Source: Malacoraja senta
Taxonomy: Eukaryota
DNA length: 64,000 bases
Assembly: GCA_038087875.1 (NCBI GenBank)
Contig: CM075995.1
Span: 4,466,001-4,530,000 of the forward strand
Direction of reading: 5' to 3'
Numbering within the stretch: the first letter of the stretch is position 1; the number at the start of each line of letters is the position of its first letter. The translations under genes were made by a program, and so were the position numbers. Under the pieces are notes generated by a model. The model saw nothing but the letters and a program-made list of their open reading frames with translations, was not told where the DNA came from and ran no database searches. This document shows, piece by piece, positions 6,001 to 61,366 of this stretch.

Positions 6001-7439
6001 TAATGTTTCTAGGGAGCGGACTAATGTGGCGACGCTTGCTATCGTTTCTTGGCCAGCACTTGGAACCGCCAGCACCCCCATCGGTATGTCTCAGTCCCAG
6101 AATTTCATTCTAAAAGGACAGAACGAGACCATTTTTCTCACTGACGCCATTCATCCTGTTTGAGAGTTAGCCAGTCATCCCAAACTTCGCTTTCTCCATA
6201 ACAGTACAAGTTCCTCACTTTCAGGTCCAATAATATTACCAATAATAAATCAATACCAATTTTCCTATTGGAGTCAATAATATTACAGAGGTGTATAAGA
6301 TCATGAAGGGCATAGATAGGGTAAAAGCACAAATTCTTCCAGGGTAAGAGAATTGTGAACTAGAGGGCATCGGTTTCAGGTAAGAAGTGAAAATTTAATA
6401 GGACCCTGAGGGGCAACTTTTTCACAGTGAAGGTGTTGGGTTTGTGAATCGAGCTGACAGAGACAGGTACAATAACAAAATTAAAAAGACATTTGGACAA
6501 GTACCCCGGTATATGTATGTGACGGATATGGGCCAAATGCAGGCAAATGATAAGACAAATTTATATAGGGCTTCTTGGATGGCATGGACGAGTTGGGCCG
6601 AATGGCTTATCTCTGTACTCTATGACTCTGACTCTACTGTGTTCTGTTACATAATTTAAAGACTGAAATGAACTGAAATTGTCAATTAGTATATTATAGT
6701 CTGTAATAATGTTTACAAAAGGATCTATTTAAGTGAGATATCGCATTCAAATTCACATGCATTCATGGATAATGAATATGTTGCACTTTTAGAAATGATA
6801 GCGTCCTTCTGTGGGGTTGTCTTTGTCATTCATTGTTGGGGAATGGGATCACTTGCAAGGTCAACATTTACTGGCCATCCCATCCTTGGCTGACCATGAG
6901 AATGAAGGGTTGAAGAAAGAACTGCAGATGCTGGAAAAATCAAAGGTAGACAAAAATGCTGGAGAAACTCAGCGGGTGAGGCAGCATTCATGGAGCGAAG
7001 GAATAGGTGACGTTTCGGGTCGAGACCCTTCTTCAGACGAATTTCTTCAGACGGATTTCAGACTGAGAATGAAGGGAGCCGCATTAGTGAATTCCTCCTT
7101 TTATAATGTCAATAGCTCGATTGTCTAAAGAAGGGTCTCGACCTGAAACTTCACCCATTCCTTCTCTCCTGAGATATTGCCCTGAGTTATTCCAGCATTT
7201 TGTGTCTATCTTCGGTTTAAACCAGCATCTGCAGTTCCTTCCTACACAGCTCGATTGTAATCATGTATTGTCTTTCTGCTGACTGGTTAGCACGCAACAA
7301 AAGCTTTTCACTGCTCCTCAGTACACGTGACAATAAACTAAACTAAACTCAACCTTTTTCTTTGTCCTAGATGCCCTCTATCTTGAAAAGATCACAGCTG
7401 CTGGGTGGAAGAGTCGACCTAAGGCACGGTTCAAAATGA
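1..7439 (+). CDS. MRS2: MRS2 mitochondrial Mg2+ channel (CorA/Mrs2 family), 3' part; coding exons <1-69, 4530-4647, 5970-6083, 7371-7439
   Basis: The spliced translation NTARELKVLIDDSESIIFINLDS|HRNVMMRLNLQLTMGMFSISLFGILGVAFGMNLESSFEE|DPRFFWLVTGIMFLGSGLMWRRLLSFLGQHLEPPAPPS|MPSILKRSQLLGGRVDLRHGSK* closely matches the vertebrate MRS2 C-terminus, including the GMN motif and two TM helices. All junctions are GT-AG. Confidence 0.95.
195..821. mobile_element. Non-autonomous PIF/Harbinger-like TIR element (MITE), CpG-rich
   Basis: About 45-bp terminal inverted repeats (AAGGGCCTGCCCCACTTGGGCGTCATTTGCGCGTCATTTACGCGACA and its near reverse complement at 774-821). It interrupts a common retroelement tail. 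Confidence 0.75.
959..1256 (+). mobile_element. tRNA-derived V-SINE (HE1-like); representative of at least 12 copies, others at about 2040, 5290(-), 5505, 7720, 20330(-), 29295(-), 42550, 52295, 55210, 61730(-) and 63640
   Basis: Head with pol III A box and B box (GGTTCGATCC), central GTTCTCCCCGTGAC...GGGTTTTCTC domain, and a tail GGGCCGAAGGGCCTGTTTCC shared with CR1-type LINE 3' ends in this window. Confidence 0.8.
2590..3247 (+). mobile_element. CR1-clade LINE (HER1-like), 5'-truncated 3' end
   Basis: ORF 2604-3188 is the ORF2 C-terminus ([14 protein letters not shown]...TRGHSLRI...VVNLWNSL), followed by the shared 3' UTR and a tandem tail. Confidence 0.9.
4530..4647 (+). CDS. MRS2: MRS2 exon with TM1 and the GMN selectivity motif
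   Basis: Acceptor ttttccgcag, 118 nt, HRNVMMRLNLQLTMG...AFGMNLESSFEE, donor GAG|gtgagg. Confidence 0.95.
5970..6083 (+). CDS. MRS2: MRS2 exon with TM2
   Basis: Acceptor cattttcag, 114 nt, DPRFFWLVTGIMFLGSGLMWRRLLSFLG..., donor TCG|gtatgt. Confidence 0.95.
7007..7038 (-). ncRNA. Minimal type-I hammerhead-ribozyme-like motif in a Penelope-derived repeat
   Basis: The minus strand reads GU-CUGAAGA-A-GGGU-CUCG-ACCC-GAAAC-GUC-AC: conserved core boxes, a 4-bp helix II and a palindromic ACGU helix III. Helix I is very short. Confidence 0.5.
7371..7439 (+). CDS. MRS2: MRS2 probable last coding exon
   Basis: Strong polypyrimidine acceptor ctttttctttgtcctag, phase 0, MPSILKRSQLLGGRVDLRHGSK then TGA; weak similarity to the human tail. 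Confidence 0.75.
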   Translation: MPSILKRSQLLGGRVDLRHGSK

Positions 7440-9309
7440 TAAAGATCCAAACGCGTCAATACGTTGATAATGGACTTTGAAGCTAAACCTGGTAGCACTG
7501 GATAGGAAGGATGATACAGGAGCAATATTTGTAGCACCATCTGCAAAGAGCAATTCAGTTCAGCAAATAAATTGCATTTGCATTTGGGATTGAAAGGGCA
7601 ATATTTCGGGTTGTTAAAAATCCGCAGCAATCCATAGGTTTTTATCATTTGTAACCCCGAGTTCACAAGTTGTTCTTTGTCTCTGCGCTTAAGTACACAG
7701 AGTGTTCTTTTCAAGGAGTGGCACAGGGGCGTCATAGTGGCTCACCTGTGGAGTGACTGCCTTACAGGTTCAATCCTGACTGCAGGTGTTATCCGTACGG
7801 AGTTTGTACGCTCTCCCCGTGATCACATGGGTGTTCTCCGGCTCCTCCGGTTTCCTTCCACACTCCAAGGACGTGCAGGTTTTAATAGGTTATGTGGCTT
7901 CAGTAAGTTGTAAAATTGTTCTTAGTGTGTGTAGGTCAGGGTATGGGGTGATCGCTAGTCGGTGTGAACTCGGTGGGCTGAAGGGCCTGTTTCTGCACTG
8001 TATCTGTATCTCTAAAGTGCAAAATTTCCAGTCTGTTTCCATCACTGTGTTACGGCAGGTTTTAGAAACCTTTGAAGATCAGACCCACGAGAGACAAAAA
8101 AAATTGAATTACACAGGGCATCTGCCCTTTCCAGGATAAAGTTTAGTGGGTTAATGCTTCCTGTAGTCATGCATTCCCCTTATTAAAACATAAAATTATG
8201 GCTATAGATTCTTATTTATTTTATCGTAATTACTTATGCATTAAAAGTCTTTGTAACTTACACAATCAGTGTTCTTTAGCTAAGAGTACTATTCAATTCA
8301 ATTCCTTTATTGTCATCTTGCAAGCAACAGTTGCGCAGTGCAAAACGAAAAGACGTTTCCCAGGGAATACCGGAGCATCGCACATGAAGTTTAAAACATT
8401 TCACACATAATAACAATACTAAAAACAATCCAGTCCCTGATGGAACAGTATAAAGTTAAAATAGATAAAAACAACGTTAAAATACAGTAAGACCAATCAT
8501 AAACATGTCCGGGGTGGCTGATTTGAGTGGCCAGTGCCAGTTATTGAAGTGGCCAGTGCCAGTTATTATAGTGTCCGTGCCAAGCCGCAGAATCAGGTGA
8601 CTGTGAGTACAGAGTGGCTGTTTAGCAGCCTCACAGCATATGGCAGGAATACTAGATAGATATTGCCAGTGAAATAGTGTTAACAGTTGGCTTTATGAGA
8701 TGTTAACACTCCCATCCCCACATGACAATTTAATTTAGGCAGCTTGTGTCATATCAGAGTATCTTTCTGCAGGTGAAATAAAATGTTCTGTCTCACATTT
8801 GGCACCTTTGTAGGTTGCTTCAATTTGATCCCTGTTGCTGATCCTTTGACTACTTCAAACAATTTCTTGAAAAGAATACATTTTATTAGCCAAGTATGTA
8901 GACATACCTGTACAAGGAATTTGCCTTGGTGCTTTGCTCGCAAGTAACAACACGACATACAGTAGATAATTAGAAATAAAACATTATAATTATATGATTA
9001 TAAATACATGTGAAGAATGAAATAAAATACCAGAGCAAAAGGAAGCTACAGACTTTTGGTTATTGAGTAGAGCTACTGCTCGTGGACAAAAGCTGTTTTT
9101 ATGTCTGGCTGTGGCAGCTTTGACAGTCCGGAATCGCCTTCAAGAGGGAAGTGATTCAAAGAGTTTGTGGCCAGGGTGAGAGGGGTCAGAGATGATCTTA
9201 CCCGCTCTCTTCCTGGCCCTTGCAGTGCACAGCTCGTCGATGGGGGAAAGGTTGCAGCCAACAACCTTCTCGGCTGATCGAACGATGCGCTGCAGCCTCC
9301 GGATGTCAT

Positions 9310-10512
9310 ACATAGATACATAGAAAATAGGTGCAGGAGTAGGCCATTTGGCCCTTCGAGCCTGCACTGCCATTCAATATGATCATGGCTGATCATCCAA
9401 CTCAGTATCCCGTACCTGCCTTCTCTCCATACCCCCTGATCCCTTTAGCCACAAGGGCCACATCTAACTCCCTCTTAAATATAGCCAATGAACTGGCCTC
9501 AACTACCTTCTGTGGCAGAGAGTTCCAGAGATTCACCACTCTCTGTGTGAAAAAGTTTTTCCTCATCTCGGTCTTAAAGGATTTCCCCCTTATCCTTAAG
9601 CTGTGACCCCTTGTCCTGGATTTCCCCAACATCGGGAACAATCTTCCTGCATCTAGTCTGTCCAACCCCATAAGAATTTTGTACGTTTCTATAAGATCCC
9701 CTCTCAATCTCCTAAATTCTAGCGAGTATAAGCCAAGTCTATCCAGTCTTTCTTCAAATGAAAGTCCTGACATCCCAGGAATCAGTCTGGTGAACCTTCT
9801 CTGCACTCCCTCTATCGCTATACTGTCCTTCCTCAGATTTGGAGACCAAAGCTGTACGCAATACTTCAGGTGTGGTCTCACCAAGACCCTGTGCAACTGC
9901 AGTAGAACCTCCCTGCTCCTATACTCAAATCCTCTTGCTATGAAGGCCAACATACCATTCGCTTTCTTCACTGCCTGCTGCACCTGCATGCCTACTTTCA
10001 ATGACTGGTGTACCATGACACCCAGGTCTCGCTGCATCTCCCCATTTCCTAATCGGCCACCATTTAGATAATAGTCTGCCTTCCCGTTTTTGCCACCAAA
10101 GTGGATAACCTCACATTTATCCACATTATACTGCATCTGCCAAACATTTGCCCACTCACCCAGCCTATCCGTCACCTTGCAGTCTCCTAGCATCCTCCTC
10201 ACAGCTAACACTGCCCCCCAGCTTAGTGTCATCCGCAAACTTGGAGATGTTGCTTTCAATTCCCTCGTCCAGATCATTAATATAAATTGTAAATAGCTGG
10301 GGTCCCAGCACTGAGCCTTGCGGTACCCCACTAGTCACTGCCTGCCATTGTGAAAAGGACCCGTTTACTCCTACTCTTTGCTTCCTGTTTGCCAGCCAGT
10401 TCTCTATCCACATCAATACTGAACCCCCAATACCGTGTGATTTAAGTTTGTATCCTAATCTCTTATGTGGTACCTTGTCGAAAGCCTTCTGAAAGTCCAG
10501 ATACAACACATC
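9310..10512 (-). mobile_element. CR1-clade LINE 3' fragment with RT domain (frameshifted)
   Basis: [22 protein letters not shown] and FADDTK motifs; flanked by the 7-bp duplication ATGTCAT (9303-9309 and 10513-10519). Confidence 0.9.
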
Positions 10513-10989
10513 ATGTCATGCTTGGTGGCTGAGCCAAACCAATCCATGATGGAGGTGAGGACAGACTCTATGATGGCAGTATAAAACTGGACCATCATTG
10601 CCTGTGGCAGATTGTGTTTTCTCAGCTGCCGCAGGAAGTACATCCTCTGTTGGGCCTTTTTGACTATGTAGTCAAAGGTGGCCTCCCAGTTAAGGACCCT
10701 GGAGATAATGGTTCCAAGGAACTTAAATGACTCCACAGATGTGATGGTAGTGTTGTTGATGGTGAGTGGAGGGAGGGGAGGGGGAGCTCTCCTAAAGTCT
10801 ACAATCAATTCCACTGTCTTAAGAGCATTGAGCTCCAGGTTGTTGCAATGGCACCAGGATACCAGCTGTCACTTCCTGTCTGAAGGCAGATTCTTCCCCA
10901 TCCTGGATCAGTCCAATCAGGGTTGTGTCGCCCGCAAACTTGAGAAGCTTGACAGAGGAATCTGTGGAGGTGCAGTCATTGGTGTAGAG

Positions 10990-11814
10990 CAGCGTTTCTC
11001 AACCGGGGTTCCGAGAGAAATAGTGATAAATAGGCTAATCATATGCAAATGCATTTGTCTCATTTTTGTGTTTAATTTCACACTCGTAATTTTATTATAC
11101 ACGTACGGCAGATTTAGCGATGTCTATTTAGCATATTTAGCGACATATTTAACGACGTCTATACGGCGCCAGTGTGAAACGGCAATATGGAGGTCGGGTC
11201 TTATTCCTAATATGGCGGAAGTGACGTTCCGTTGCGTTCCGTAGCGTACTACACGTCAGTCCATTGGATTTCGTAGGAGTGGTCTAGCTCCTCTAGTATC
11301 TTTGGTCCTGTCCATATCTTTGGTCCTGTCTGTGCTTCCTGACATGCAGGTAGTCCCTCATTCGCCCACGTTATTTAGTAATTTTTACCCATCATTTAGG
11401 AATGTTATATGAATTAAAAACATTTAAGTATGTTTATGTTTATTTTTGTTAGTTTATCAAGTTTATGTATGTTTTTGTTAATTTATGAAAAGTTTGTGTT
11501 CTCTCTCTCTCTCTCCCTCTCCCTTTCCCCCTCCCCCTCCCCCTCCACCTCCACCTCCCCCTCATCCAAGGTTCTGTTTGCCTTTATTTGCTTCCATTTT
11601 GAACAAGCAGTTTGATTTCATTTTTTTTGCATTGTCAATAATCTTGAGAAAAACGCATTATTTTTTTGCTTAAAGCAGTTATCAGAAAAATATTTGCCTT
11701 ATGAAAGAGAAAGAAAGAGATTAATAAAGATATATAATAATTTTTATATAGGTTCCCTGAGACATGAAAATTATTTCAAAGGTTCCGCAAGGATAAAAAG
11801 GTTGAGAAACGCTG
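10990..11814. mobile_element. Non-autonomous hAT (Charlie-like) DNA transposon
   Basis: Perfect 15-bp TIRs CAGCGTTTCTCAACC / GGTTGAGAAACGCTG; degenerate 8-bp TSD GTGTAGAG / GTTTAGCG. Confidence 0.85.
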
Positions 11815-12311
11815 GTTTAGCGAGAGTAAAGGAGAGGGGAGAGTACGCAGCCTTGCGGTGCTCGTGTTTTGTTTCACTGTACAAAAGCCATTAATAATTT
11901 TGAACAAAGATAGACACAAAATGCTGGAGTAACTCAGCGGGACAGGCAGCATCTCTGGAGAGAACGAATGGGTGACGTTTTGGATTGAGACCCTTCTTCA
12001 GACGTCTCGACCCGAAACGTCCCTATTCCTTCTCTCCAGAGATGCTGTCTGTCCCGCTGAGTTACTCCAGCAGTTTGTGTCTATCTTCGGTGTAAACCAG
12101 CTTCTTGCTCCCTTTCTTTGAACCCTTGCTCTACAATACCTCTACTCACTTGCTATCAATAACTCCTTAAAATATCCTTATCAGATCTATCTAAAAACTG
12201 TTTTAGAACTATTTGGCAGTAAAAACCTTTTTCCCAGGGTGGAAATGTCCTACACTAGAGGGCATAGCTACAGTATATGGTGAGAGGGGGACAGACTAAT
12301 GGAGGCGCAGG

Positions 12312-12385
12312 AGTCTAGGGCACCAGGTATTCCCAGACGGTTTCCCATCCTAGCCTGAGCTTGCTGAGCTTCCGAGATCAGACGA
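12312..12385 (-). pseudogene. 5S rRNA-derived fragment (pseudogene or SINE3-type remnant)
   Basis: The reverse complement TCGTCTGATCTCGGAAGCTCAGCA...GGATGGGAAACCGTCTGGGAATACCTGGTGC matches the 3' two-thirds of vertebrate 5S rRNA, with an internal deletion of about 10 nt. Confidence 0.85.
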
Positions 12386-14131
12386 ATAACCATATCCCTT
12401 GATTCCATTAGCCCTTAGAGCTAAATCTCATTCTCTCTTTTGATTAGCAATGCATGAAATTTTCAGATAAGGCGAATTTTGACTTCAGGGCATAAATCTC
12501 TATCATAAATTTTACCGTTACCTCGTCGTTTTTTCGAGAAGATGTGATCACACACAAACAAATAAATACACAAATCCACAAACAAGATCAGAGTTTTCTA
12601 GTTATAATAAGGATATGTGTGTGTGTATATTATACACTGAACTTTTTCTCTCGTTTATCATATTGTTTACAGTGTACTATGTTTACATATTCTGTTGTGC
12701 TGCAGCAAGTAAGAATTTCACTTTTCCATCTGGGACAAATGACAATAAAACACTCTTGACCCTTGGACCTACGCTATGTTCCCTCAATCGCAGAGGTACA
12801 GTATCAGACACAGATACAGAAATAGCTTTAGAGATATATTGTGGCGGTACCTGGTGGCTAGCCACGGGTAGCGAACCCTCGGCTCAGGAGGGAGGAGTTG
12901 AGCGTCTCGGAGTGGGAAGCGTTGGGTCATGGGGTCCGACCTGGGGTATTTAAGGTCGGGTCACGGGGTTGGAGTTGGAAGCAGTAATAAACACCATTTC
13001 GTTCACACAACTCGTTTTCGCCTCATACTTGGCTTGACTCCTGGAGTCCCCGCTACACTGGTGGCCCCGACGACCAGGAGTGGATTCCTGGACAAAGTTC
13101 ACGTAAAAATGTACAGTGCTCACCCCACCGCGGCCGCCTACGAGGCCGAGCTCAACGCTGCCTACCTTTTGGACCTCGCAGCTGGGGGTTTGGTTTCGTC
13201 AGGTGGAATCCCAGTTCCACGTCCGCGGCGTAACGGTCGACGAGACTCGGTATCATTACATGGTAGGGGCTCTCGACCAGGAAACAGCCGGTCGGGTCAT
13301 GCCTTACCTCAATAACCCGCCGGCGGAGGGTAAGTACGCAGGCCTCAAGGAGCTGCTACTCCGGATCTACGGGCCCGGAGTGGATGGATGAGCTGCCATG
13401 GGTGTTGTTGGGGATTCAGACTGCACCTAAGGAGGATTTGGCATCCTCAGCGGAGTTGGTGTATGGCGCTCCGCTCACCGTCCCAGGAGAGTTCATCCCG
13501 GCCGCTGATGGCTCCCGGGAACCGCCGTCCTCCATGCTGCTGCGCTTGAGGAAGAGAGTCGGCGCCCTGTCTCCCGTCCCAACTTCTTGGCATGGTATAG
13601 CCCCTTTCCATGTGCCACCGGCTCTGGCGGACTGCCCATACATTTTTTTGTGCCGCGACGCCCACCGGTCATCCTTGCAACGGCCCTATGAAGGTCAATT
13701 TCGGGTGCTGCGGCACGGGACAACAACATTTATACTGGACACGGGGGGGCGGCAAGAGACTGTGTCTGTGGCGCGCCTTAAGCCAGTCCATTTGGACTTG
13801 AGCGAGCCGGTTCGGGTGGCCCAGCCTCCTTGTCGTGGACGTTTGCGGTCGCGGGTTCCTGTATGTTCTTCCGGGCGGGTCAAGGACTCTGTTCGGGCGG
13901 ACGTGTTTACGCGGTCAGGCCGCCTTGTTCGGTGTCCCGTCCGTTTCAGTGCCTCTGGTTCTGGGGGGGGTCATGTGGCGGTACCTGGTGACTAGACACG
14001 GGTAGCGAACCCTCGGCTCAGGAGGGAGGAGTTGGGTCATGTGGTCCGACCTGGGGTATTTAAGGTCGGGTCACGCCCGGTCACGGGGTTGGAGTTGGAA
14101 GCATCACAGTGCAGTAATAAACACCATTACG

Positions 14132-16097
14132 TAGGTATGTTACAATACTTACCTTCAGCGGCGCTGCAATTCTGCCACTGGCCTTGTGCGCGATTTTGGT
14201 GCCTTTGAGGGGGGGGGCGGGGTTAAAACGTGGGTTTCTCCTACCTTGTCCTGGATTATATTTCGTTGGAGTGCAAGCTTTTGCTGAAGAATCGTTCCGA
14301 CGGGCGTTCTGTGTATTTTGTTTTAAAAATCCCCCGACAATTTCAGCGCTGGAGTTGTTTTAAAATCAGCTTCTAAAGCCGACAACAGGGACGGATTTCA
14401 CGCACAGGACAGGTAAACGAAAGCCGTTTATTTTATGTATAAAAGTGCTCCTTAAGATGCCTTTAATTCACATTTTATGTTGTGAAACGGTGATTTTTTT
14501 CCCCGTACGAACCGGCAGTATTTTTCATGCCGATACGGGTTTAAATTCACCGCAACTCCAAGTTTGCGGATGACACGAAGCTGGGGGGCAGTGTTAGCTG
14601 TGAGGAGGATGCTAGGAGGCTGCAAGGTGACTTGGATAGGCTGGGTGAGTGGGCAAATGCATGGCAGATGCAGTATAATGTGGATAAATGTGAGGATATC
14701 CACTTTGGTGGCAAAAACAGGAAAGTAGACTATTTAAATTGTGGCCGATTAGGAAAAGGGGAGATGCAATGAGACCTGGGTGTCATGGTACACCAGTCAT
14801 TGAAAGTAGGCATGCAGGTGCAGCAGGCAGTGAAGAAAGCGAATGGTATGTTAGCATTCATAGCAAAAGGATTTGAGTATAGGTGCAGGGAGGTTCTAAT
14901 GCAGTTGTACAGCGTCTTGGTGAGACCACACCTGGAGTATTGCGTACAGTTTTGGTCTCCAAATCTGAGGAAAGACATTCTTGCCATAGAGGGAGTACAG
15001 AGAAGGTTCACCAGATTGATTCCTGGGATGTCAGGACTTTCATATGAAGAAAGACTGGATAGACTCGGCTTGTACTCGCTAGAATTTAGAAGATTGAGGG
15101 GGGATCTTATAGAAACTTACAAAATTCTTAAGGGGTTGGACAGGCTAGATGCAGGAAGATTGTTCCCGATGTTGGGGAAGTCCAGGACAAGGGGTCACAG
15201 TTTAAGGATTAAGGGGAAATCCTTTAGGACCGAGATGAGAAAAACATTTTTCACACAGAGAGTGGTGAATCTCTGGAACTCTCTGCCACCGAAGGTAGTT
15301 GAGGCCAGTTCATTGGCTATATTTAAGAGGGAGTTGGATGTGGCCCTTGTGGCTAAAGGGATCAGGGGGTATGGAGAGAAGGCAGGTACAGGGTACTGAG
15401 TTGGATGATCAGCCATGATCATATTGAATGGTGGTGCAGGCTCGAAGGGCCGAATGGCCTACTCCTGCACCTATTTTCTATGTTTCTATGTTTCTATGTT
15501 CCAAATCATCGTGTTCCAGAAAAACCCACTCGCAATATGATTTAAATGGCCATTAATTTACAGGTATTAAACATTAAATTCCTTCCATTTGGCCTATAAA
15601 TCCATGACAATGAGATTTAAAAATTATGTTACATTGTGAATTCTTGTGTGAATGTTATTTGGACCATTAGCTTTTTTAAAATGTTAATCTATTCTTAAGA
15701 AATTGATAGATGTTTAGTTCTAGTAATTGAATTTTGTAATTAGCTACAATTGGGTAACTAACTAATTATATGCTTTAAATTCATGTCATCTAAGTAAGAT
15801 TTTCATATTTGTTTCAGAATGCTTCAATCTATAATAACTGAAAATTTCTTTCAGTTCTCTTAATATTTAAGAAAGTTATGGGCTTTTGACTGTCCTCGAT
15901 CACAGCTTTTGTGTTAAGTCAATGGAAAAGCAATAGGGAACAAGATGCTAATTTCCGAGTATGAAAATGGCCATAACTTTTTTAATACTGAAGATATGAA
16001 AGTGAATTAGGTGTCAAATTAAACTTCTTTTTATGCTTTATCTGATGGGATAAATTAGACTTGATTTTTAAAATCTCAAAATTTTGTAACATTGCTA
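14132..16097. mobile_element. Non-autonomous DNA transposon (hAT-like, superfamily uncertain) inserted in the Gypsy 3' LTR
   Basis: Imperfect TIRs TAGGTATGTTACAA / TTGTAACATTGCTA; the direct duplication CATTACG(T) occurs at both junctions and the LTR sequence resumes exactly afterwards. Confidence 0.7.
14553..15500 (+). mobile_element. CR1-clade LINE 3' fragment nested in the DNA transposon
   Basis: ORF 14785-15399 is nearly identical to the 9402-10331 copy; (CTATGTTT)n tail. Confidence 0.9.
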
Positions 16098-16176
16098 CAT
16101 TACGTTCACACAACTCGTTTTCGCCTCATTCTTGGCTGGTCTCCCGGAGTCCCCGCTCCAATATAATACTTACTTA

Positions 16177-18443
16177 AAGGTCTGTCTCACTGTGCGAGCT
16201 GACCCACGAGTGACCCCGAGTGAAAGACTCGTGGTTGCGTACGAGACTACAAGTTTATGATCCAGAGTTTAACCGAGTTCCCACGGGTATGTCTAAGTTT
16301 GCCGTTTACTTCTCATTTCTGCGATGTTCCAAGTTCGTCTCCCGAGTTTACCAAGTTCCTCTCCCGTTAATCTTGAGGCAACAATGTATATCGAAGTGTT
16401 GAAAAATCATCACACGTTAAAAAAATGATGTCATGCCAGCCAAAGAACGTAGAGACTATTGTGTTTGCTGCATGTGTTCTGCACAACCTGATCCGTATCA
16501 GAGGTGCAGCTTCAGGATCAGCGACAGCCATGCAGCACGGTGACTTAGTGGACAGTCAAACAGGGAGAATAACACTAGGTGCGTGGAGGAGTGGTACAAA
16601 CGACGAGACTTTGGTGCCACTGCAGTGTTTTCGAGGTAACACGGGGACCAACAGTGCAAAAGAGCAGAGAGACCATCATAAAACACAAAATAGAGGAAGG
16701 CAAAATATATTCACATCTTGATTCTCACAATCATTTGTGAGATTTAAGGACTCAGCTGCCTCATATGCTGTGCTTTTTAAATGTTTAAAATTGTCACCTC
16801 TCAGTAGATCAGAAAATAAGACAAAGTCTTATGTGAAACAAATGTCTTGAATGTGAAACAAAGTCTTTATTCTTGTTCAATATAAAAAACGCTTTTTTGC
16901 GCATATTGAGAAATATGCGTAATTTCCTGCAAACCCATATCACGGTGAAGCACCACAGCAAACAACGCAGTGGTCTGAAAAAGGGCTTCTCATACATGAA
17001 AATCAACAAATGAAGCACAAATAAAAGTATTTCCACTATATACTAATTCAGCTGAGAAATGCACTAGTCTAAATTCAGGCAATAAAAGACCATCTCTGCT
17101 CCTACTATAATTCAGAATTGGGCAGTGTGCCGTGGCAGGACAGCTTATTTTGAGCGGCTGCCGACCACAGGTACATCACTGCATGAGGAGAGCCCACATG
17201 CAGAAAAATCCAGTTAATTTCATGTTTAGTTTAAATCCTGCTGACTTTTCATTGTTTAACTTTAAGTGTGGATTTTATTTTTTATTGTGGTGTAAAAGTA
17301 ATTTCATTCCATCTGTCTTTCCTTTAAAACGTGGTTATCATGCATCTGCTTATCTGATTGTAGATCTCAAAACTTGTCATTTAGCGCATTGCATTGTATC
17401 TTTTATTGCCTGAATTTAGACTAGTGCATTTCTCAGCTGAATTAGTATATAGTGGAAATACTTTTATTTGTGCTTCATTTGTTGATTTTCATGTATGAGA
17501 AGCCCTTTTTCAGACCACTGCGTTGTTTGCTGTGGTGCTTCACCGTGATATGGGTTTGCAGGAAATTACGCATATTTCTCAATATGCGCAAAAAAGCGTT
17601 TTTTATATTGAACAAGAATAAAGACTTTGTTTCACATTCAAGACATTTGTTTCACATAAGACTTTGTCTTATTTTCTGATCTACTGAGAGGTGACAATTT
17701 TAAACATTTAAAAAGCACAGCATATGAGGCAGCCGAGTCCTTAAATCTCACAAATGATTGTGAGAATCAAGATGTGAATATATTTTGCCTTCCTCTATTT
17801 TGTGTTTTATGATGAAAGGAATATTACATTCAAGTCATGAGACTTTGTAGTGATATTAAAATGAAGACTTCCAGACATCAATTTGATCTTGATAGCAAAG
17901 AACTCTCTTTTATTGTGCAATGAAGTAAACAAACAGTGAGAATCAAACGGATCAGCTAAAAGCTTTTCAACACAACACAACACAACACAAATTTATATAT
18001 AAACTTCAAGCAATTTTTTCTTTTCAACCCACTCTGTCACCTTATCAATAACTTGCTTAACTTTGTTAAGCAGAATTTGTCTTTAAAAAGTCTAAGTAAC
18101 TGATATTTCTGTCCCTGATTATTGTTTCTAAAAAGAGTTCCCACGGTAGAATCACGAGTCACAAAGTTAAACGCACGGGCCACTACGTTCTTACAACGAG
18201 TTTAAAATGTTTCAAATTTTAACCACAAGAGTACATTTTACTCGTGGAAAAGTAGAAACATGTTTGAACTTTTGCAAGAGTTAACAAGTTTCACGTGTAC
18301 CTCCCGTTAGCGCCAAAAGTCGCTAAGTTGCGTCCACGAGTTCCGACGTTCCCGCTACGTTAATTGTACGTGATTACCACGAGTTAAATTTGTTTTAAAC
18401 TCGGGGTCACTCCTGGGTCAACTCGCACAGTGAGACAGCCCTT
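16177..18443 (+). mobile_element. PIF/Harbinger deletion derivative with a transposase C-terminal remnant and an internal long inverted repeat
   Basis: About 45-bp TIRs AAGG(T/G)CTGTCTCACTGTGCGAG(C/T)TGACCCA; flanking TTA/TTA; ORF 16425-16673 IVFAACVLHNLIR...AKEQRDH resembles the end of DDE_Tnp_4 (HARBI1-type) transposases. Confidence 0.85.
16674..17814. repeat. Long inverted repeat: arms 16674-17089 and 17399-17814 (416 bp each), 309-bp spacer
   Basis: The arms are reverse complements with one mismatch seen by eye. The ORF track shows identical 75-aa translations at 16809-17036(-) and 17452-17679(+). Confidence 0.95.
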
Positions 18444-18689
18444 TTACTTTTTATTACAGACTCAAGGTCCAGATAAATGACAAGACATTACATTGAGTAA
18501 ATTGCATACAAAAGCACTGTAAATTACTTACTATCATGTAAAGTTTATGATTAGCAAGTTTGCAGATGACACTGAAGTGGGTGGTGTTTGTAGGAAGCGA
18601 AGACGGTTGTGAAGAAGCGTTGTTGTAGGATCTTGTTGTCACCACCCTCTGGTCCAAAGACACTAGACCAGAGCCTCCCCTGGTATCTT

Positions 18690-19080
18690 TGCTCTGGTCT
18701 GGACTCCGCCTCAGCATCAGCTGCCGCTGCCGCTGCCGCCCACCAGAGGGAAGATGCTGCGGACACTGCGAGCGGCTGCCCGGCTGCAGCCCCGGTTCCA
18801 GCCCCCGGCCCCGGCCCCGGCCTACTCGAGCCTGGCGGCGGTGGCGGGGTCGCCGTTGCTGCGCTCCCGGGCCTACGTGGGTGGCCGCTGGGTGGAGGCG
18901 GAGGGCGAGGCGCGGTTCGCGGTGCAGGAGCCGGCCAGCGGGATGATGCTCGCCCGGGTGGCCGACTGCGGCGCTGAGGACGCCAGGGCGGCCGTGAGGG
19001 CGGCGTACCAGGGCCTGCCCGCCTGGAGGGCGGCCACCAGCAAGGTTAGAGGCACCCCTCTCCCCCGGGGGCAGTGTGGG
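18690..19080 (+). promoter_or_regulatory. CpG-island-like region covering the ALDH5A1 5' UTR and exon 1
   Basis: Very high GC and CpG density against an AT-rich background, coinciding with the first exon. Confidence 0.65.
18754..19044 (+). CDS. ALDH5A1: ALDH5A1 exon 1 (CpG-rich; mitochondrial targeting peptide)
   Basis: [15 protein letters not shown]...AYVGGRWV...VADCG...WRAATSK, donor AAG|gttaga. Confidence 0.92.
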
Positions 19081-51826: not shown

Positions 51827-52005
51827 TTATCTGTTTTTTGGATGATAATTGAAAGGGACTCCATTTTTCAGTGAGCCATTCATACCAGCTTTATAGTTCC
51901 CCTTCTCGATGGTTTCTTTGTTGAACAGTGTGTTCTGATCACTCTCAAACTCTGATTCAGATACCATTAGACTCGAATTGTGTTCTGTGCTTCTGTGTTT
52001 CACAC
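51827..52005 (-). CDS. KIAA0319: KIAA0319 last coding exon
   Basis: ctag|(G)VKHRSTEHNSSLMVSESEFESDQNTLFNKETIEKGNYKAGMNGSLKNGVPFNYHPKNR then TAA; 179 nt. Confidence 0.93.
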
Positions 52006-55000
52006 CTAGAGCAGAAAGTCAGAGCAAAGTCAATAGGCATTGTAGCTCATTTTTAGGAACTGGTGCGAACATTTGGACCAAACACATCTATCTCTCATTC
52101 TTATACATAACTCCATTCTCGCGGGGCAATGCCGAACACAGGAAACTACAAGACATCATGAATACACATTAAAACACATGAAAGCAGCTCATAACCATTG
52201 AAATATTGTCGTAGGGAGGTCACCGTTGTACTGCAGTAGCCAATTTGCATTGTTCTGCAGAAAATGTGACAGCCTGCAATATAATAATCGGTTGAGCAGC
52301 AGTAGAGTTGCCGCCTTACAGCGCCGGAGACCCGGGTTTGATCTTAATGACGGGTCCTGACAGTGTGGAGTTTGTATGTTCTCCCCGTGACCGCTTGTCT
52401 TTTCCCTGGGCACTCCGTTTCCTTACACACTCTAAAGATGTACAGGTTTGTAGGTTAATTGGCTTTGGTGCTAGTGCTAGTGTACAGGGTAGTGCTAGTG
52501 TACAGGGATCGCTGGTCGGTGTGGACTCGGTGGGCCAAAGGCCCTGTTTCTACACTATTTCTAAACTAAACTAAAACTAATAATAATTTTACGGTTTTTA
52601 GTAATATTAGTTGTAATAATATAGGCTGATGTAGGCTTGGGTTTAAATTTTTATCCAACACAATTTCCCAGCCAGTGCACCCATCATAGCTTTGGAGCAT
52701 CATTCTAAATGACATGCTCAAGTCCCTTGAATGCGACTTTGAGTTACATTGAGCCACTGCTGATACTTCAAGGCTGTCATATAGCAAGTGGCAAACAAAC
52801 TGAACGTCAATGGTCAAAGCATTTTATCATGATGCATCACAGCTTGGGTTGGGAACAGTTCCATCCAAGACCGCAAGAAATTACAGCGAACTGTGGATGC
52901 AGCCCAGACCATCACGCAAACCAACCTCCCTCCTATTGAAGATAGAAACAAAAAGCTGGAGTAACTCAGAGGGACAGGCAGCATCTCTGGCGAGAAGGAA
53001 TAGGTGACATTTCGGGTCGAAACCCTTCTTCACACTGGTTAGGGATAAGGGAAACGAGAGATATAGACGGTGATGTGGAGAGATCAAGAACAATGAATGA
53101 AAGATATGCAAAAAAAGTAACAATGATAAAGGAAACGGGCCATTGTTATCTATCTCCCCCCCACCCAAGTCACACCAGCCTCTCGTTTTCACCCAACGAA
53201 CAGCTAACAATGGCCTGTTTCCTTTATCGGTACTATTTTGCATATCTTTCATTCATTGTTCTTTATCTCTCTACATCATCGTCTATATCTCTCGTTTCCC
53301 TTTTCCCCCAACTAGTCTGAAGAAGGGTCTCGACCCAAAATGTCACCCATTCCTTCTCTCCAGAGATACTGCCTGTCCCGCTGAGTTACTCCAGTATTTA
53401 GTGTCTATGCATGTGTCCATTGTGTCCTCCACCAACAAAGCATAAACAGTGTTATAGTTAACTGGATCCCACTTCCACATTGTTCTTATTAATTAATCTT
53501 TAAACGATAACTACCAATAATCACATATCATCTGTAAAGCTCGTTGTATCTATACACTAAACCACTAACCATATTTAGGCCTCAATGCCACTCTTTCTTG
53601 ATCATCCATATCGTCCAAGATGGTGTATTTGGTTTTCTTCCTTACTTTCGTCCTCTTTCTGTTTAAAAACAACAATTCAAGTTCAGTTTATGTCCAGGAG
53701 CACGTGGACGTTAGAACAACGCGTTAGTTGTTTCTGTACGATTTCTACCAAAAGATATGCTAATTCTTTAGACGCAAGGAATTGCAGATGCTGGTTTACA
53801 ACAACAACAACAAAAACGCAAAGTGCTGGAGTAACTCAGCAGGTCAGGCAACAGGAGAACATGGATGGGTGACTTTTGGGGTCAGGATCCCTTAGACTGA
53901 TTGTGGTGGGGGGTTGGGAAGAAAGCTGGAAGAGAAGAGGGTCAAGACAAAGCCTGGCAAGTGATAGATGGATGCAGGGGGTTTTGATAGTTGGACAAAG
54001 GTCAGAAATGAAAAGACTAAAGGTGTGAGATAAGGATAGAAGAGGTGCAAGTAGGTCAAAGGGGAGAAATGGGTTCGAGTCCAGGTGGGGCTCAGGGAAA
54101 TAGGGGGGCGGGGGTCGCTTGTAGGTTACCTAAAATGACAGAATTCAATATTCATACAGTTGGGTTATAAGCTACCTATATAAAATATGAGGTGCTGTTC
54201 ATCCGGTTTGCTTGTGGCCTCACTCTGGCAATGGAGGAAACCCAGGACAGAAAGGTAAGTATTGGAAAGGGAGTTAAAATGGTTGGAAACTGGGAGATTC
54301 AGCAGGCCTTGGCAGACCAAGCGCGTGTTCAACGAAACAGTCGCTTAGTTTACACTTATTCTCGGCAATCTATAGGAGGCCACATCGTGAACACCAAATG
54401 CAGTCGAGGAGGTGCACGTGAACCTCTGTCTCACCTGGAAGGACTGTTGGAGTCCCTGGGTGGATGTGTGGAAGGCAGTAGAGGAAAGTACCAGAGGAGG
54501 GGTTGGTTTGGGTGGGAAGAGATGAGTGAAGCAAGGAGTTGCAGATAAAGCGGTCTCCGTGGAAGGCAGAAATGGGTGGGGATGGGAAGATGTGATTGGA
54601 GGTGGCAGAAGTGTTGGAGAATGAGATGTTGGATGCGGAGGCTGGTGGGGTGAGAGCCAAGGGCCAGGGGAACTCTATTCTTGTTCCATCTGGGGGGGGG
54701 GAACGGAGAGACAGAACACAACTAGGGGACACAGAGGAGACGCAGGTAAGGGATCTACTTTTGACAACGGGGTAGCTACGTTTACTAAAGAAACAAGAGA
54801 CATCGGATGTTTTAGACTGGAAACCCTCATCTGGGAGCAGAAATGCCGGAGACAGAAGAATTGAGAGTAGGTGCTAGCATCTTATCAAGAGGCAGGGTAG
54901 GAGGAGGTGTAGTCCAGGTGGGACTCAGATCAAGAAAGGGGTGAGGAGGTGTGTATTTACTCATACCTCTTGCAACAACAATTACAGATCCAGCAAATTC

Positions 55001-58000
55001 CTCCAATTATGACGATTGCTAGAAACACTGACAGAATCACGTATAAAATGTTCCACTCTGTGAACAAAATAACAAGGTTTACAACAGCATTTGAATTATA
55101 CATGTGACAATAAGCTAAACTGAACATATTCAGATGACACCACTCCCAACAATGCAGCCCCATTATTACTGCACTAGTGTGTTAGCTGAGATTCATCCTC
55201 AAATCTCTGGCGGCACAGCGCTAGAGTTGCTGCTTTACAGCGCTTGCAGTGCCGGAGACCTGGGGTTCGATCCCGACTACGGGTGCTGTCTGTACGGAGA
55301 TTGTACGTTCTCCCCGTGACCTGCGTGGGTTTTCTCCAAGATCTTCAGTTTCCTCCACACTCCAAAGGCGTCCACGTTTGTAGGTTAATGGGTTTGGTAT
55401 AAATGTAAATTGTCTCTAGTGTGTGTAGGATAGTGTTAATGTGCAGGGATCGCTGGTCAGTGCTGACCCGGTGGGCCGAAGGGCCTGTATCTCTACACTA
55501 AACTAAACTCTGGTGCTGCACGTGAACCTACATCTTACTGTTCAGAGACCACCTCGTCTCGAGGATAAATGATGTTCCTCTAGTTCTGTAGTGACTGATG
55601 AATGAGCATAGTGTGGATTTCACAGATGGGACAAATGCTTGAGAAGATAAAGGTGGCTAGTTTGTACGGAGGTGGACTTCTTTACATTGGTTTTGTATGT
55701 CACTTGGTGAATGGATTCAAGATTCACTCCAATTTAAATCAAGGGGCCTAAAGGCATTTACAGCAATGTTACCTCCAGCTGTGACTTGACAGTGCATTTA
55801 CCCAGTAATTTCCAATCTAGCGTTAGCTCATAGCTTAATTTTAGGCTGCAGAGAATGACGCTAAAAAAGGAAAGTGTTCATGCTAGCAGCATGAGCTCAC
55901 AGGGAAGATATTTAGTTTTATTACTGTTGCTAGAACAAGATGTGTGAACCAGCCCATCAGAACAATGGCCAGCCAGTGAGGATGAAAATCTACAACCCGT
56001 GTTCAGAAGCCAAAATCGAATACTTTATCTCGCTGGCTCATCATAGAAACACAGAGACATAGGTACAGGAGTAGGCCATTCGGCCCTTCGAGCCAGCACC
56101 GCCATTCAATATGATCATGGCTGATCATCCAGAATCAGTACCCCGTTCCTGCTTTCTCCCCATGCACCTTGATTCCGTTAGCACTAAGAGCTGTAACTCT
56201 CTCTTGAATACATCACACTGACTTTATTCCATCCAACACATTCTAAGCACAAAATTACTCACCGCAGTTGCTTTCTCCCTCGTACAAGTAATGCCATAAC
56301 GGATTCTCCGTCCAGAACGGGTAGCAGGCACAGCGCTTGGTGAATGGGTCACAGTGCCCATGGCCTGAGCACTGCAGGGAACAGACTGTAAAGACAGCAC
56401 ATAGCGAATAGTTTCGTTTATTGTCCCGTGGTAAAGTGAGAAGCTTTAGACGTGGTGGACAATTACACTGACCAACTATCATCAAATGTGATTTCAGAAG
56501 TTTATGCTGAAAAATTCACCAGGGTACGCAACACAAGCAGCTTAGCAATGTGCCACAACTGCCTTGGGCCCCAGGAGGGAGCGAGTGCAAGATAACCAGG
56601 GATATAGAGAATCAACTTGGAAATGGGCCCTCTGGCCCAACTTGCCCACGAAGACCAACATGCCCCATCTACACGTCCCACCTGCCCACGTCTGGCCCGT
56701 AACCCTTTAAACCTATCCTATCGATGTACCTGTCCAAATGTCTCTTAAAGGTTATGATAGTACCTGCCTGCCTTGCATTGTAGAGACTGGCCAAGTGCCT
56801 CCTGATCTCTATCAGCAAAGCCTTGTAAAAATGCCATCGGGCCATGTCTCTGAACAACACTAGTTATTGTGCTAACTGATTTCAATTTTTATTTCTTGCT
56901 ATATCACAATTTATCACTATAAACCAACCTGTGGATACGCACCATCAATTTTGGAAATGTATGTAATACAGAACAAATGCATTTGTACAGGCCATAAAAT
57001 ATTTAAAGTATGCAGGTATAATGAATACTTTAAAAAGGAGACTAAGTTATGGCATTAATTTAATATAAGTCTTTGCGATTGAAATTTGGTACAATTTCAG
57101 CCAAGAGCACCGGTTCAATGCCTTCATTGGCAGGAGGACAGGGTTATAATAATTTACACATTTTTTTACAAAGCAGCATTTCAACAATGGGCTTAACCAT
57201 CGGAATGCACCATTAAAAAATCTTAACCCGAACCTATGTACGGACACAAAATGCTGGAGCAACTCAGCGGGTCAGGCAGCATCTCCGGAGAATGGCTGAC
57301 GTTTCGGCTCAGAACCCTACTTCAGTCTGAAGGTAGACGGGACAGGGGGCATGTCCTATGTATGGGCATATGCAGGCTCACATGCATTCAGACATTCAAA
57401 TACTTATACTTAAAAAACCCACAAGATCATCAGGAAAATCCTCATCAAGGGCATATCTAAGTACAATCTGCGTTTATTAAAGCAAACTGCCAAGATCATG
57501 GCAATGCCATTCCTCAAGGAATTGTGCAAACCCTATCACTACATTCTCTGCCACAGAAGGCAGTGGAGACTAATTCACTGGATGTTTTCAAGAGAAGAGT
57601 TAGATTTAGCTCTTAGGGCTAACGAAATCAGGGGATATGGGGGGAAAAGCAGGAACGGGGTACTGATTCTGGATGATCAGCCATGATCAAATTGAATGGC
57701 GGTGCTGGTTCGAAGGGCCGAATGGCCTACTCTTGCACCCATTTTCCATGTTTCTAATATAAATTTGTCGGTGATTTGTACAAGACTTTGGACAAATCAA
57801 CACTCAAGCAAGACAACTTATTGACATTGTAACTCACCAACTGTATCTATTCTCATGGCCTTAAAAAGCAGGAAGTCCACCTTCTCCCTCATGAGCCGTT
57901 TCTGCAAACTCCCGACAACATCCGCCCCTTTATGTACACTGTCTGGCCATCTGCCCTGCACGTAGAAAGTTAACACTGTGCTGCAGGACAGAAGATACAA

Positions 58001-61000
58001 AAACCATCATTAAACAGCGGATAGACACAAAAAGCTGGAGTAACTCAGTCCAACAGGTAGCATCTCTGGAGAAGGAATGAGTGATGTTTCGGGTCGAGAA
58101 AGTCATGGGAAAGGGAAACGAGAGATATAGGCGATGTTGCGCATCCCTCCCCCAACCAAGTCGTACCAGCTTCTCTTTCTCACCCAGCAAACAGCTAACA
58201 ATGGCCTGTTTCCATTATCATCGTGGGCTGAAAGGCCTGTTCCTGTGCTGCACTGTTCTATGCAGACTCAATGGGCCGAATGGCTTAATGTTGCTCCAAT
58301 GTCTTATGTTGCGCTATGTAAATGTCTAAGTCACCTGTGGCAATTTTCTCTGCAGAGCAGGATCAATGGATGTTCCATCCAACCCATTAATGGGTTGTCA
58401 TTGGGAAGGAGATGGACCTCATACCACAATGACATAATCATAGAGCGATATAGCGTAGAAACAGGCCCTTCGGCTCAACTTGCCCACACCGGCCAACTAC
58501 ACTAGACCCACCTGCCCGCATTTGATCCATATCCCTCCAAACCTGTCCTACCCATGACTTCTCCTGTACTCTCACCACTGGGGCCCAACATCATTTGTGA
58601 AAAGTGTTTCACTTTGGCATTGTCTGCATTTTGGCAGTCAGCTACATTAATCACAATCAACCTGGGATTAGACTTCCATCCATAAACCGCTGGTATCTCC
58701 AATACAGAAAATCAGGTGCAAATATAAAAAGGCACGACTGGCCCAACTGCGGTGCCAAATACAAAGCTTATAAGTTATAGAGAATAAAAATACAATCATT
58801 GCTTGCAGCAAATAATAGTCTCTCTGCTTCATTTTGAAACAAAAATGCATTCAATAATCTAAAAAATAGACCAGCTGACAACCCACACTGCCTCAGAAAG
58901 GGAATGTACTGTATTTCCCGGCGTTGAAGAGGCTATTTTTTACACTAAAATAAGGCTAAAAAAAATTACCTGCATCTTGGAGGCCGGAGGTTAGGTTGTT
59001 CATAGGCCTATAGTTGCAGCAAGGAAGAATTTCATTGTTCCATTGCCGGGTGAGTGGGCTGGGGGCTTGGAGGCGCACTGGGGGGTTCCACGGTCAGCTG
59101 CGGGAGATCCTGGGGGGGGACGGGGGGGTGTTACACCCCCCCCCCCCCGTGTTTTGGGAAGTGGAGGACAATCCCCCCCATTTCTTGTGAAACATGTTGC
59201 AGCAAAACCGCCCGGGAGTGGCTGTAATGCCCAGGTGGACTCGCCTGCCCCGGGACTGGCTGCAGTTCCCAGGTCGCGAAAACTAATTGAAAAAAAAAAT
59301 ACGCCTGCGGGCCAGATGATTTTGGGTTATGGGCCGGATCTGGCCCGTGGGCCGTAGGTTGTCGACCCCTGTCCTAGATGTTAGGCCTCATTGTGTCCCC
59401 TCCCATGGCAAGGAAGCAGCACGTCGAAAGTCGAGGTGTTGGTGGAGTGGACTGCTGGAGGCCCCGCAGCAGCCTGGGGCTCTATTGGATCGGGCGCTGC
59501 TCCGAGGCCGAGCGCACGGATCGGATGTGGCCTGCAGCGGTACAAACAATACGCAATGCAAATGGCCGCCACCATGGCGAATGTTTTTTTTCCAAAATTT
59601 AGCAACTCAAAATGGGGGTGAGTCTTCGACGCAGGTGCATCTTTGTCACCGGGAAATACGGTACTTGATGAAATGTATTTTTAAAGCGGAGATTGGCAGA
59701 TTCTTGATAAGTCCGGGTGTCAAGGGTTATGGGGAGAAGGCAGGAGAAAGAGGTTGAGAGGGAGAGATAGATCATCCATGGTTGAATGGCGGAGTGGAAT
59801 TGATGGGCCAAATGGCCTAATTCTGCTGCTAGACCTTATGAACATGAAATAAAGTGCATCTCTTCCATGACAGATATTGTGCTCATGGTACCAGTACTCC
59901 AGTGCTAAATCACACTAGCATCTTTATAATCTGAATCCACTTTAAAAATGTTGAAAATACCATATTTCCATGATTCCATTCATTAGGGGACGATTGCAAG
60001 TATAAGAGTTAACTTTTCTGGTTAAAACTAAAATCTTTTGTTCTCCGTTCACCAAATATAATGTGGGTCACAAAGTAAAGTAGGAAGAAAACTTGGTGTC
60101 TACCTACACTTGCTTCTGTACCATTACATTATCAAGACAAATTCAATTTCCCACTAAGTTGACCATCAACCCAGGACAACGGGAACAAGTCTGAAGAGGA
60201 GTCTCGACCCGAAACGTTACCTATTCCTTTGCTCCAGAGATGCTGCCTGACCCGCTGAATTATTCTAGCATTTTGCATCTATCAACAGAAACAAATACCA
60301 GGTACACAAAAATGCTGGAGAAACTCAGCGGGTGCAGCAGCATCTATGGAGCGAAGGAAATAGGCAACGTTTTCGGGCCGAAACCCTTCTTCAGACTGAT
60401 AGGGGGTGGGGAGAAGAAAGGAAAAAAGGAAAAAAGGCGGAGGAGGAGCCCGAGGGCTGGGGGATGGGAGGAGACAACCAGAGGGCTGATGAAGGGGAGG
60501 GGACAGCAAGGGCTAGCAGAGTTGGGAGAACTCAATGTTCATGCCCCCAGGATGTAGACTGCCCAAGCGGAATATGAGGTGCATTTCCTCCAATTTCCGG
60601 TGTTGCTCGCTGTGGCCATGGAGGAGACCCAGGACAGAGAGGTTAGATACGGAATGGGAGGGGGAGTTGAAGTGCTGAGCCACCGGGAAGTCAGGTAGGT
60701 TATTGCGGACCGACCGGAGGTGTTCGGCGAAACGATCGTCAAGCCTCCGCTTGGTCTCACCGATGTAGATCAGCTGACATCTAGAGCAGCGGATGCAATA
60801 GATGAGGTTGGAGGAGATGCAGGTGAACCACTGTCGTAAACAAATACCAGCTCTGCCAGTATGCCCACACTCTGGAACTAAAGAATGAAACTTCTACCAA
60901 GTAATCGCTCGAGATGTTTTCAGAAACTTTCAGTCAACTCCCAAAGGCCTGGTTCACCGACCTGGAATCAGAATGCGCCTGGATCTTCTGGACTTTGATA

Positions 61001-61121
61001 TCTTCATCTCGGACGCCCAGTATCACGGCCAGTTGCTGCACAAGGGTTTCCTTCTGTTGCTCAGTCAGTCTGCTCACCTCGACATGAAGAACCAACTCCA
61101 CCAAGTCATCCTTCCTAGAGT
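51827..61121 (-). CDS. KIAA0319: KIAA0319 dyslexia-associated type I membrane protein, last six coding exons; upstream exons lie beyond the window
   Basis: Exons 61121-60962, 57980-57838, 56385-56263, 55057-54967, 53658-53570 and 52005-51827 join in frame. They encode the Cys-rich CSGHGHCDPFTKRC segment, a TM helix ending CCCKR, the YTIL endocytosis motif and STEHNSSLMVSESEF. The gene is convergent with ALDH5A1, as in human. Confidence 0.93.
53570..53658 (-). CDS. KIAA0319: KIAA0319 cytoplasmic exon
   Basis: aaacag|KRTKVRKKTKYTILDDMDDQERVALRPKY|gttagt; 89 nt. Confidence 0.92.
54967..55057 (-). CDS. KIAA0319: KIAA0319 transmembrane exon
   Basis: cacag|(E)WNILYVILSVFLAIVIIGGICWICNCCCK(R)|gtatga; 91 nt. 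Confidence 0.94.
56263..56385 (-). CDS. KIAA0319: KIAA0319 Cys-rich juxtamembrane exon
   Basis: tacag|CSLQCSGHGHCDPFTKRCACYPFWTENPLWHYLYEGESNC|gtgagt; 123 nt. Confidence 0.94.
57838..57980 (-). CDS. KIAA0319: KIAA0319 exon
   Basis: ctgcag|TVLTFYVQGRWPDSVHKGADVVGSLQKRLMREKVDFLLFKAMRIDTV|gtgagt; 143 nt. Confidence 0.92.
59045..59371. mobile_element. hAT-like DNA transposon terminal fragment
   Basis: Ends GGCCCGTGGGCCGTAGGTTGTCGACCCCTG|TCCTAGAT, a Charlie-type terminus and target; the other end was not found. Confidence 0.5.
60302..60837 (-). mobile_element. Young Penelope-like insertion (GIY-YIG end plus pseudo-LTR)
   Basis: 13-bp TSD AAACAAATACCAG (60289-60301 and 60838-60850); the first ~300 bp are near-identical to 61367-61656. 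Confidence 0.8.
60962..61121 (-). CDS. KIAA0319: KIAA0319 exon
   Basis: tgtag|(D)SRKDDLVELVLHVEVSRLTEQQKETLVQQLAVILGVRDEDIKVQKIQAHSDS|gtcggt; 160 nt. Confidence 0.9.
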
Positions 61122-61366
61122 CTACAGATCAGACACCAGGTTTAGCTTCCATACAATGGATCTAGAGGTCAAAATGTAGAGACACAAGGAACTGCATATG
61201 CTGAAACCTTGAGCAAAACACAAATCACTGGAGGTGTTCAGCGGGTCAGGCAGCATCTGGGGAGGGAATGGACAGGCGATGGTTTGTTTCGGGTCGGGAC
61301 CCTTCTGGCTGACCCGCTGAGTTCCTCCAGCACTTTGTGTTTTGTTCAACAGGTCAAAATGTGTTG

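Follow-up and report, generated by a model that had tools for sequence, protein, structure and literature searches.

Introduction

Why does a conserved vertebrate gene block in Malacoraja senta lack GPLD1, and how old and how widespread is the absence? A plasma enzyme produced in the liver, GPLD1 releases GPI-anchored proteins by cleavage and is discussed as a mediator of the benefits of exercise (PMC12568357). Two further sources give its position: human coordinates place GPLD1 between MRS2 and ALDH5A1 (PMC5702371), and on duck chr2 the same four genes are grouped as MRS2-GPLD1-ALDH5A1-KIAA0319 (PMC11269910). Here we analyse a stretch of 64 kb (the window) in which MRS2 and ALDH5A1 are direct neighbours, together with the distribution of GPLD1 among vertebrates and their outgroups.

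Flanking genes and gene order

The last three coding exons of MRS2 lie on the plus strand at 4530-4647, 5970-6083 and 7371-7439; they have AG/GT ends, a single stop falls at 7437-7439, and the exon at 4531-4647 matched human MRS2 in the PDB (E 1e-16). ALDH5A1, also on the plus strand, has ten coding exons between 18754 and 49801 (1545 nt, 514 codons plus stop) with canonical splice sites and no internal stop; the best match of its last exon was human SSADH (succinate-semialdehyde dehydrogenase; E 3e-34). Minus-strand 3' coding exons of a KIAA0319-family gene occupy 51897..61130, the gene extending past the window edge, and two of the four exons submitted matched Pfam PF23620 (KIAA0319 C-terminal domain). 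We take this gene to be KIAA0319 rather than KIAA0319L, judging by its position.

MRS2(+), ALDH5A1(+) and KIAA0319(-) are collinear and in the human order, and 11,314 bp separate the MRS2 stop from the ALDH5A1 ATG in a window that contains no N. An earlier reading of this DNA from sequence alone (the sequence-only reading) had described three flanking genes in human order and orientation with a gap of 11.3 kb; the exon models and the PDB and Pfam matches agree on the order, the measured distance agrees on the gap, and the orientation agrees with the strands that we presume for the human 6p22 block. The order of these three genes is thus common to the window, human 6p22 and duck chr2, whereas the window differs from both blocks in lacking GPLD1 and in having MRS2 and ALDH5A1 11.3 kb apart. 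In hagfish the block is not intact, MRS2 and TDP2 being located on chr10 and ALDH5A1 on chr17 (PMC10972751 file 5).

Search for GPLD1 in the window

The GPLD1 family architecture was defined as PF00882 Zn_dep_PLPC plus FG-GAP repeats. Reference proteins were reached through a prokaryote motif scan, which gave 7 GPLD1-like loci among 120 and led to a caecilian GPLD1 and from there to 120 listed tetrapod clusters. With tblastn against the whole 64 kb, the caecilian protein found nothing (best E 1.0), and neither did the turtle, coelacanth and two amphioxus GPLD1 proteins (best E 0.4-3.3). A tetrapod GPLD1 profile run on 4049 six-frame segments of the window reached a top score of 2.6 bits, and a broader GPLD1 profile, run on 4260 windows of the 64 kb with stops read as X, reached 3.0 bits. 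No exons for the N-terminal Zn_dep_PLPC domain were found in the interval by tblastn and profiles, none for the FG-GAP propeller by the profile searches, and Pfam returned neither an FG-GAP nor a PLPC match for 25 interval ORFs. The claim that the interval holds no GPLD1-like exon is therefore upheld by tblastn and two profiles (best E 0.4, 3 bits), and the tBLASTn check with vertebrate GPLD1 that had been proposed along with it gave no match in the window.

The power of these searches was controlled with 72 coelacanth and 72 amphioxus GPLD1 pieces of 33 residues each, i.e. exon-sized, a piece being counted as recovered at E<0.05. Recovery was 69/72 for coelacanth and 57/72 for amphioxus; it was 43/72 and 29/72, respectively, after 35% extra random substitution and 13/72 and 7/72 after 50%. 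At this power the searches would have revealed a GPLD1 gene anywhere in the window, and also a pseudogene in a moderate state of decay; the window contains no GPLD1 sequence. Since no remnant was found despite this sensitivity to decayed exons, the loss of GPLD1 was not recent. A recent loss specific to this species finds no sign either in decaying GPLD1 exons within the window or in a cartilaginous-fish copy among the protein matches listed below. The entire window having been searched, a pseudogene hidden within an intron of ALDH5A1 or on the opposite strand was ruled out.

Composition of the MRS2-ALDH5A1 interval

With boundaries set by hand, transposons make up about 89% of the interval (10,039 of 11,314 bp); the earlier claim was that nearly all of it is MRS2 3' UTR plus identifiable elements. 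Self-similarity inside the window alone accounts for 39%. Depth of the contigs from public sequencing runs is high across the 7250-12839 bins, one bin excepted. Pfam support for the interval elements is limited to RVT_1, PF09004 and DUF7041, and family names are otherwise putative. The SINE and LINE families would fit a skate-like cartilaginous fish.

The MRS2 3' flank (7440..8881, plus strand), which probably includes the UTR, has single-copy stretches at about 7440-7720, 8040-8285 and 8635-8880 and polyA-like hexamers at 7566, 8182, 8240 and 8777, with a SINE and a LINE fragment interposed. The SINE (7720..8039, plus strand) is tRNA-derived, has many copies in the window (14 self matches) and is presumably V-SINE/HE1-like. 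The LINE fragment lies at 8285-8635, and contigs of two related organisms (B and C) diverge from the window at about 8286-8289; its seeming absence from both suggests a recent insertion.

A LINE remnant with a PF09004 match follows on the minus strand (8882..11872), broken by two later insertions with joints at 9302-10513 and 10986-11822. The first is a minus-strand CR1-like LINE fragment (9303..10519) with an RVT_1 match and a 7-bp target-site duplication, ATGTCAT; the second is an unstranded non-autonomous DNA element (10990..11815), which we take to be hAT-like, with short terminal inverted repeats and an imperfect 8-bp duplication. Further along, a plus-strand, internally deleted LTR retrotransposon (12840..16160), presumably gypsy-like, retains two LTRs, a DUF7041 match and a 4-bp duplication, ATAT. 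Its 3' LTR is broken in turn by a DNA element (about 14130-16100), inside which lies another CR1-like fragment, the second of the interval, at 14553-15491.

The remnant of a DNA transposon, again unstranded, occupies 16177..18443; it is presumably Harbinger-like. Its terminal inverted repeats pair at 83% over 65 nt, and it has neither a Pfam match nor a clean duplication. Within it lies an inverted repeat of 416 bp with 1 mismatch (arms 16674-17089 and 17399-17814, spacer 309 bp); this is either an inverted duplication of very recent date or an artefact of the local assembly. Non-autonomous DNA elements with similar terminal repeats also occur at 200-820 and 45117-45400 of the window. The last 310 bp before the ALDH5A1 ATG (18444..18753, plus strand) hold a short CR1-like scrap and are GC-rich and CpG-rich from about 18600. 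Elsewhere in the window, ALDH5A1 intron 5 contains a near full-length AT-rich LINE (about 33000-39360), presumably of the L1/Tx1-like class, in which two reading frames are broken and which ends in poly(A).

The insertions in the interval are young and nested: the two CR1-like copies (9303..10519 and 14553-15491) are 94% alike over 761 nt, nested insertions retain intact target-site duplications, and close relatives differ by only 4-5% at MRS2. The sequence-only reading had the gap filled by transposons, which holds for most of its length; they did not replace the gene, however, and as a cause of its loss they were rejected, being too young.

Contiguity of the interval

Could a segment bearing GPLD1 have been collapsed between repeats by an assembly mis-join? 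The interval is rich in repeats, and the contigs from four public sequencing runs that were compared over 7250-12839 are short, and none bridges even that part. Against this, paired ends are preserved over most of the gap, namely the ATGTCAT and ATAT duplications, the LTRs, the terminal repeats and the host LINE, which is in register on both sides of its insertions, and the contigs show both nested-insertion joints inside the LINE remnant at 8882..11872. Runs of organism A, possibly the source sample, agree letter for letter with the window over four single-copy pieces (7444-7616, 7984-8319, 8620-8907 and 12265-12416), and organisms B and C show 95-96% identity at the MRS2 end. Insertion ends that match across most of the gap support contiguity, the window is free of N, and the wider absence of GPLD1 described below makes a hidden copy unnecessary; we regard a mis-join as very improbable.

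Distribution of GPLD1 in protein clusters

Two protein-cluster searches together listed 155 distinct vertebrate GPLD1 clusters, 154 from tetrapods and 1 from coelacanth; two of the tetrapod clusters were unnamed and were grouped with mammals by lookup and tree. None of the 155 came from a cartilaginous, ray-finned or jawless fish, in a collection that may or may not cover shark and ray proteomes. The first search started from the caecilian GPLD1 and listed 120 of 472 matches, all tetrapod, with coelacanth ranking below that listing. The second used a starfish catalytic-domain query, which favours no vertebrate class and was preferred over a full-length hemichordate query on the basis of a word-sharing simulation; 120 of its 345 matches were listed, comprising 104 vertebrate clusters (0 cartilaginous) and 16 invertebrate ones. 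Of the 120 tetrapods already known, only 69 passed its cut-off, and coelacanth passed it barely; a shark GPLD1 could rank below both listing cut-offs.

In a library clustered at 50% identity, one frog protein stands for full-length vertebrate GPLD1. Among 28 of the 150 listed clusters that were looked up there was no fish, the entries being five partial or fused tetrapod models, invertebrates, protists and four without a taxon. Any fish protein with more than 50% identity to the frog one would be concealed behind it, as happened with coelacanth, and the result thus informs mainly on divergent teleosts. Outside the vertebrates, GPLD1 was found in amphioxus, hemichordates, echinoderms, molluscs, a sponge and Capsaspora; coelacanth and B. 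floridae both carry the gene.

Distribution of GPLD1 in orthology and gene tables

In Tan et al. 2021 (PMC8455134), GPLD1 corresponds to OG0010978, whose 20 proteins come from 19 of the 37 taxa, against 35 taxa for ALDH5A1 and 36 for MRS2. The set comprises 18 lobe-finned species, 11 ray-finned (gar and ten teleosts), 5 cartilaginous, lamprey, Ciona and amphioxus. The 19 taxa equal exactly the sum of the 18 lobe-finned species and amphioxus, a match by count and not by member list, and such a figure already implies a patchy distribution of GPLD1 among vertebrates. By count only, GPLD1 therefore seems to be missing from that table's five cartilaginous and eleven ray-finned fishes (gar and ten teleosts) as well as from lamprey. 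The study's set contains no batoid, neither skate nor ray, it gives no synteny, and its text passages, as far as available, leave GPLD1 unmentioned.

The same count bears on a narrower loss, confined to skates or to batoids, with chimaera or some sharks retaining the gene. At a miss rate of 4%, the likelihood of observing 19 taxa is 0.46 with 19 carriers and 0.37 with 20, and one or two extra carriers are thus allowed if some tetrapod models were missed, although general presence in ray-finned fishes is excluded by the count in that table. A narrower loss also has room in the two cluster searches, whose listings give 120 of 472 and 120 of 345 matches. All five cartilaginous fishes as additional carriers would be unlikely, with a likelihood of 0.002-0.03 at miss rates of 4-8% (0.002 at 4%), even if at 12% the counts of 19 and 24 carriers become inseparable (0.09 versus 0.09); cartilaginous fishes moreover account for 0 of the 104 vertebrate clusters listed with the starfish query. 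We consider a narrower loss distinctly unlikely.

A gene table for hagfish with 28,470 rows (PMC10972751 file 5) has neither GPLD1 nor PF00882; its FG-GAP genes are integrins in 14 of 14 cases, and MRS2 and ALDH5A1 are present. GPLD1 thus seems to be absent from hagfish as well. The supplements of the elephant shark (PMC3964593) and little skate (PMC10115646) papers, as far as available, lack both GPLD1 and the control ALDH5A1 and are hence uninformative, and the nurse shark plasma proteome, whose main text as available does not mention GPLD1, was not counted.

Searches of the source genome for GPLD1 were confined to the 64-kb window, which leaves room for an intact, relocated copy elsewhere. 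No cartilaginous-fish GPLD1 appears, however, among the matches listed or the clusters looked up, and the OG0010978 count argues in the same direction; relocation is improbable, and we infer absence from the rest of the genome as well.

Origin of the gap

We favour, at a probability of about 0.55, an old deletion that removed GPLD1 from the MRS2-ALDH5A1 interval, probably at or close to the ancestor of cartilaginous fishes, with no other copy in the genome. Under this reading, early vertebrates would have inherited GPLD1, the gene would have been deleted from the interval in or near that ancestor, and MRS2 and ALDH5A1 would then have closed up. The spacer would later have gathered young nested transposons, like other non-coding DNA of the window. 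Ray-finned fishes and cyclostomes would have lost GPLD1 separately, so that, among sampled vertebrates, coelacanth and tetrapods keep the gene. The breadth and date of the loss are inferred from the distribution described above, and only parsimony would place GPLD1 at this position in the jawed-vertebrate ancestor. Against this reading, no outgroup was seen with GPLD1 next to MRS2 or ALDH5A1, and hagfish has the latter two on different chromosomes. The absence looks like one shared by sharks, rays and most fishes rather than a new loss in one species. Lineage-specific loss, one of the causes named by the sequence-only reading, accordingly survives as the likeliest cause, but the listed clusters, the OG0010978 count and the hagfish table point to a far older and wider loss than that wording conveys.

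Alternatively, GPLD1 may be absent from the genome and yet never have stood here, the MRS2-ALDH5A1 adjacency being ancestral for jawed vertebrates and the gene having been inserted on the lobe-finned stem. The window holds no remnant whatsoever, and among the matches listed the vertebrates with GPLD1 are all lobe-finned. Old deletions would be equally traceless, however, and this history requires the same losses and a translocation besides; deletion in place is favoured because it needs no extra gene move, and we consider the alternative unlikely. The related earlier suggestion, that GPLD1 entered this position only in bony vertebrates, would have to be restricted to lobe-finned fishes, and the gene itself predates vertebrates, given its presence in amphioxus, echinoderms, molluscs and a sponge.

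A single loss on the vertebrate stem (or the tunicate plus vertebrate stem), followed by horizontal regain on the lobe-finned stem with the gene landing head-to-head with ALDH5A1, would need one loss and one gain instead of three or four losses; the window would in that case preserve the ancestral arrangement from before the insertion. In quick trees, in which coelacanth and tetrapods group with a support of 100, the lobe-finned clade does not group with amphioxus, and chordate monophyly has a p-AU of 0.02 under LG+G4. The better, mixture model nevertheless rejects neither chordate (p 0.057) nor deuterostome (p 0.215) monophyly, and vertical descent is therefore not rejected; in addition, no donor adjoins the vertebrate clade in the trees. 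Repeated loss of dispensable enzymes is common, which also speaks against a regain, and we judge it highly improbable. That GPLD1 is restricted to lobe-finned fishes among vertebrates through at least three independent losses has about an even chance of being correct, and is far likelier than the regain.

Significance and related observations

Should GPLD1 be missing from sharks and rays and likewise from ray-finned fishes and cyclostomes, most vertebrates are natural knockouts. Fish models could then not represent the GPLD1 pathway, and the shedding of GPI-anchored proteins in those vertebrates must depend on another enzyme. A likeness is found in the shortwave opsin losses of cartilaginous fishes (PMC12361510), where a conserved block has likewise lost a gene in sharks as well as in rays and skates; GPLD1 differs in that ray-finned fishes and cyclostomes seem to lack it too, and nothing here shows a link to adaptation or to a mechanism. 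Mechanistically the locus offers nothing new, and public orthology tables already contain the pattern in latent form. A full-text search of openly available literature found no report on the absence of GPLD1 in fishes. The case is one of genuine gene loss, probably old and of a well-known type, which public tables show and which has apparently gone unremarked.

A metagenome scan with coelacanth GPLD1 gave 18 loci, all FG-GAP-type matches at 25-34%, and no animal GPLD1. The prokaryote motif scan yielded full-length bacterial homologues of GPLD1 at L008:2434-5514, L016:2647-5352, L046:2653-5652 and L052:2611-5388, and further homologues at L011, L023 and L026. They combine PLPC and FG-GAP domains with signal-peptide-like starts, several come from deltaproteobacterial MAGs, and their catalytic domains share about 44% identity with that of caecilian GPLD1.
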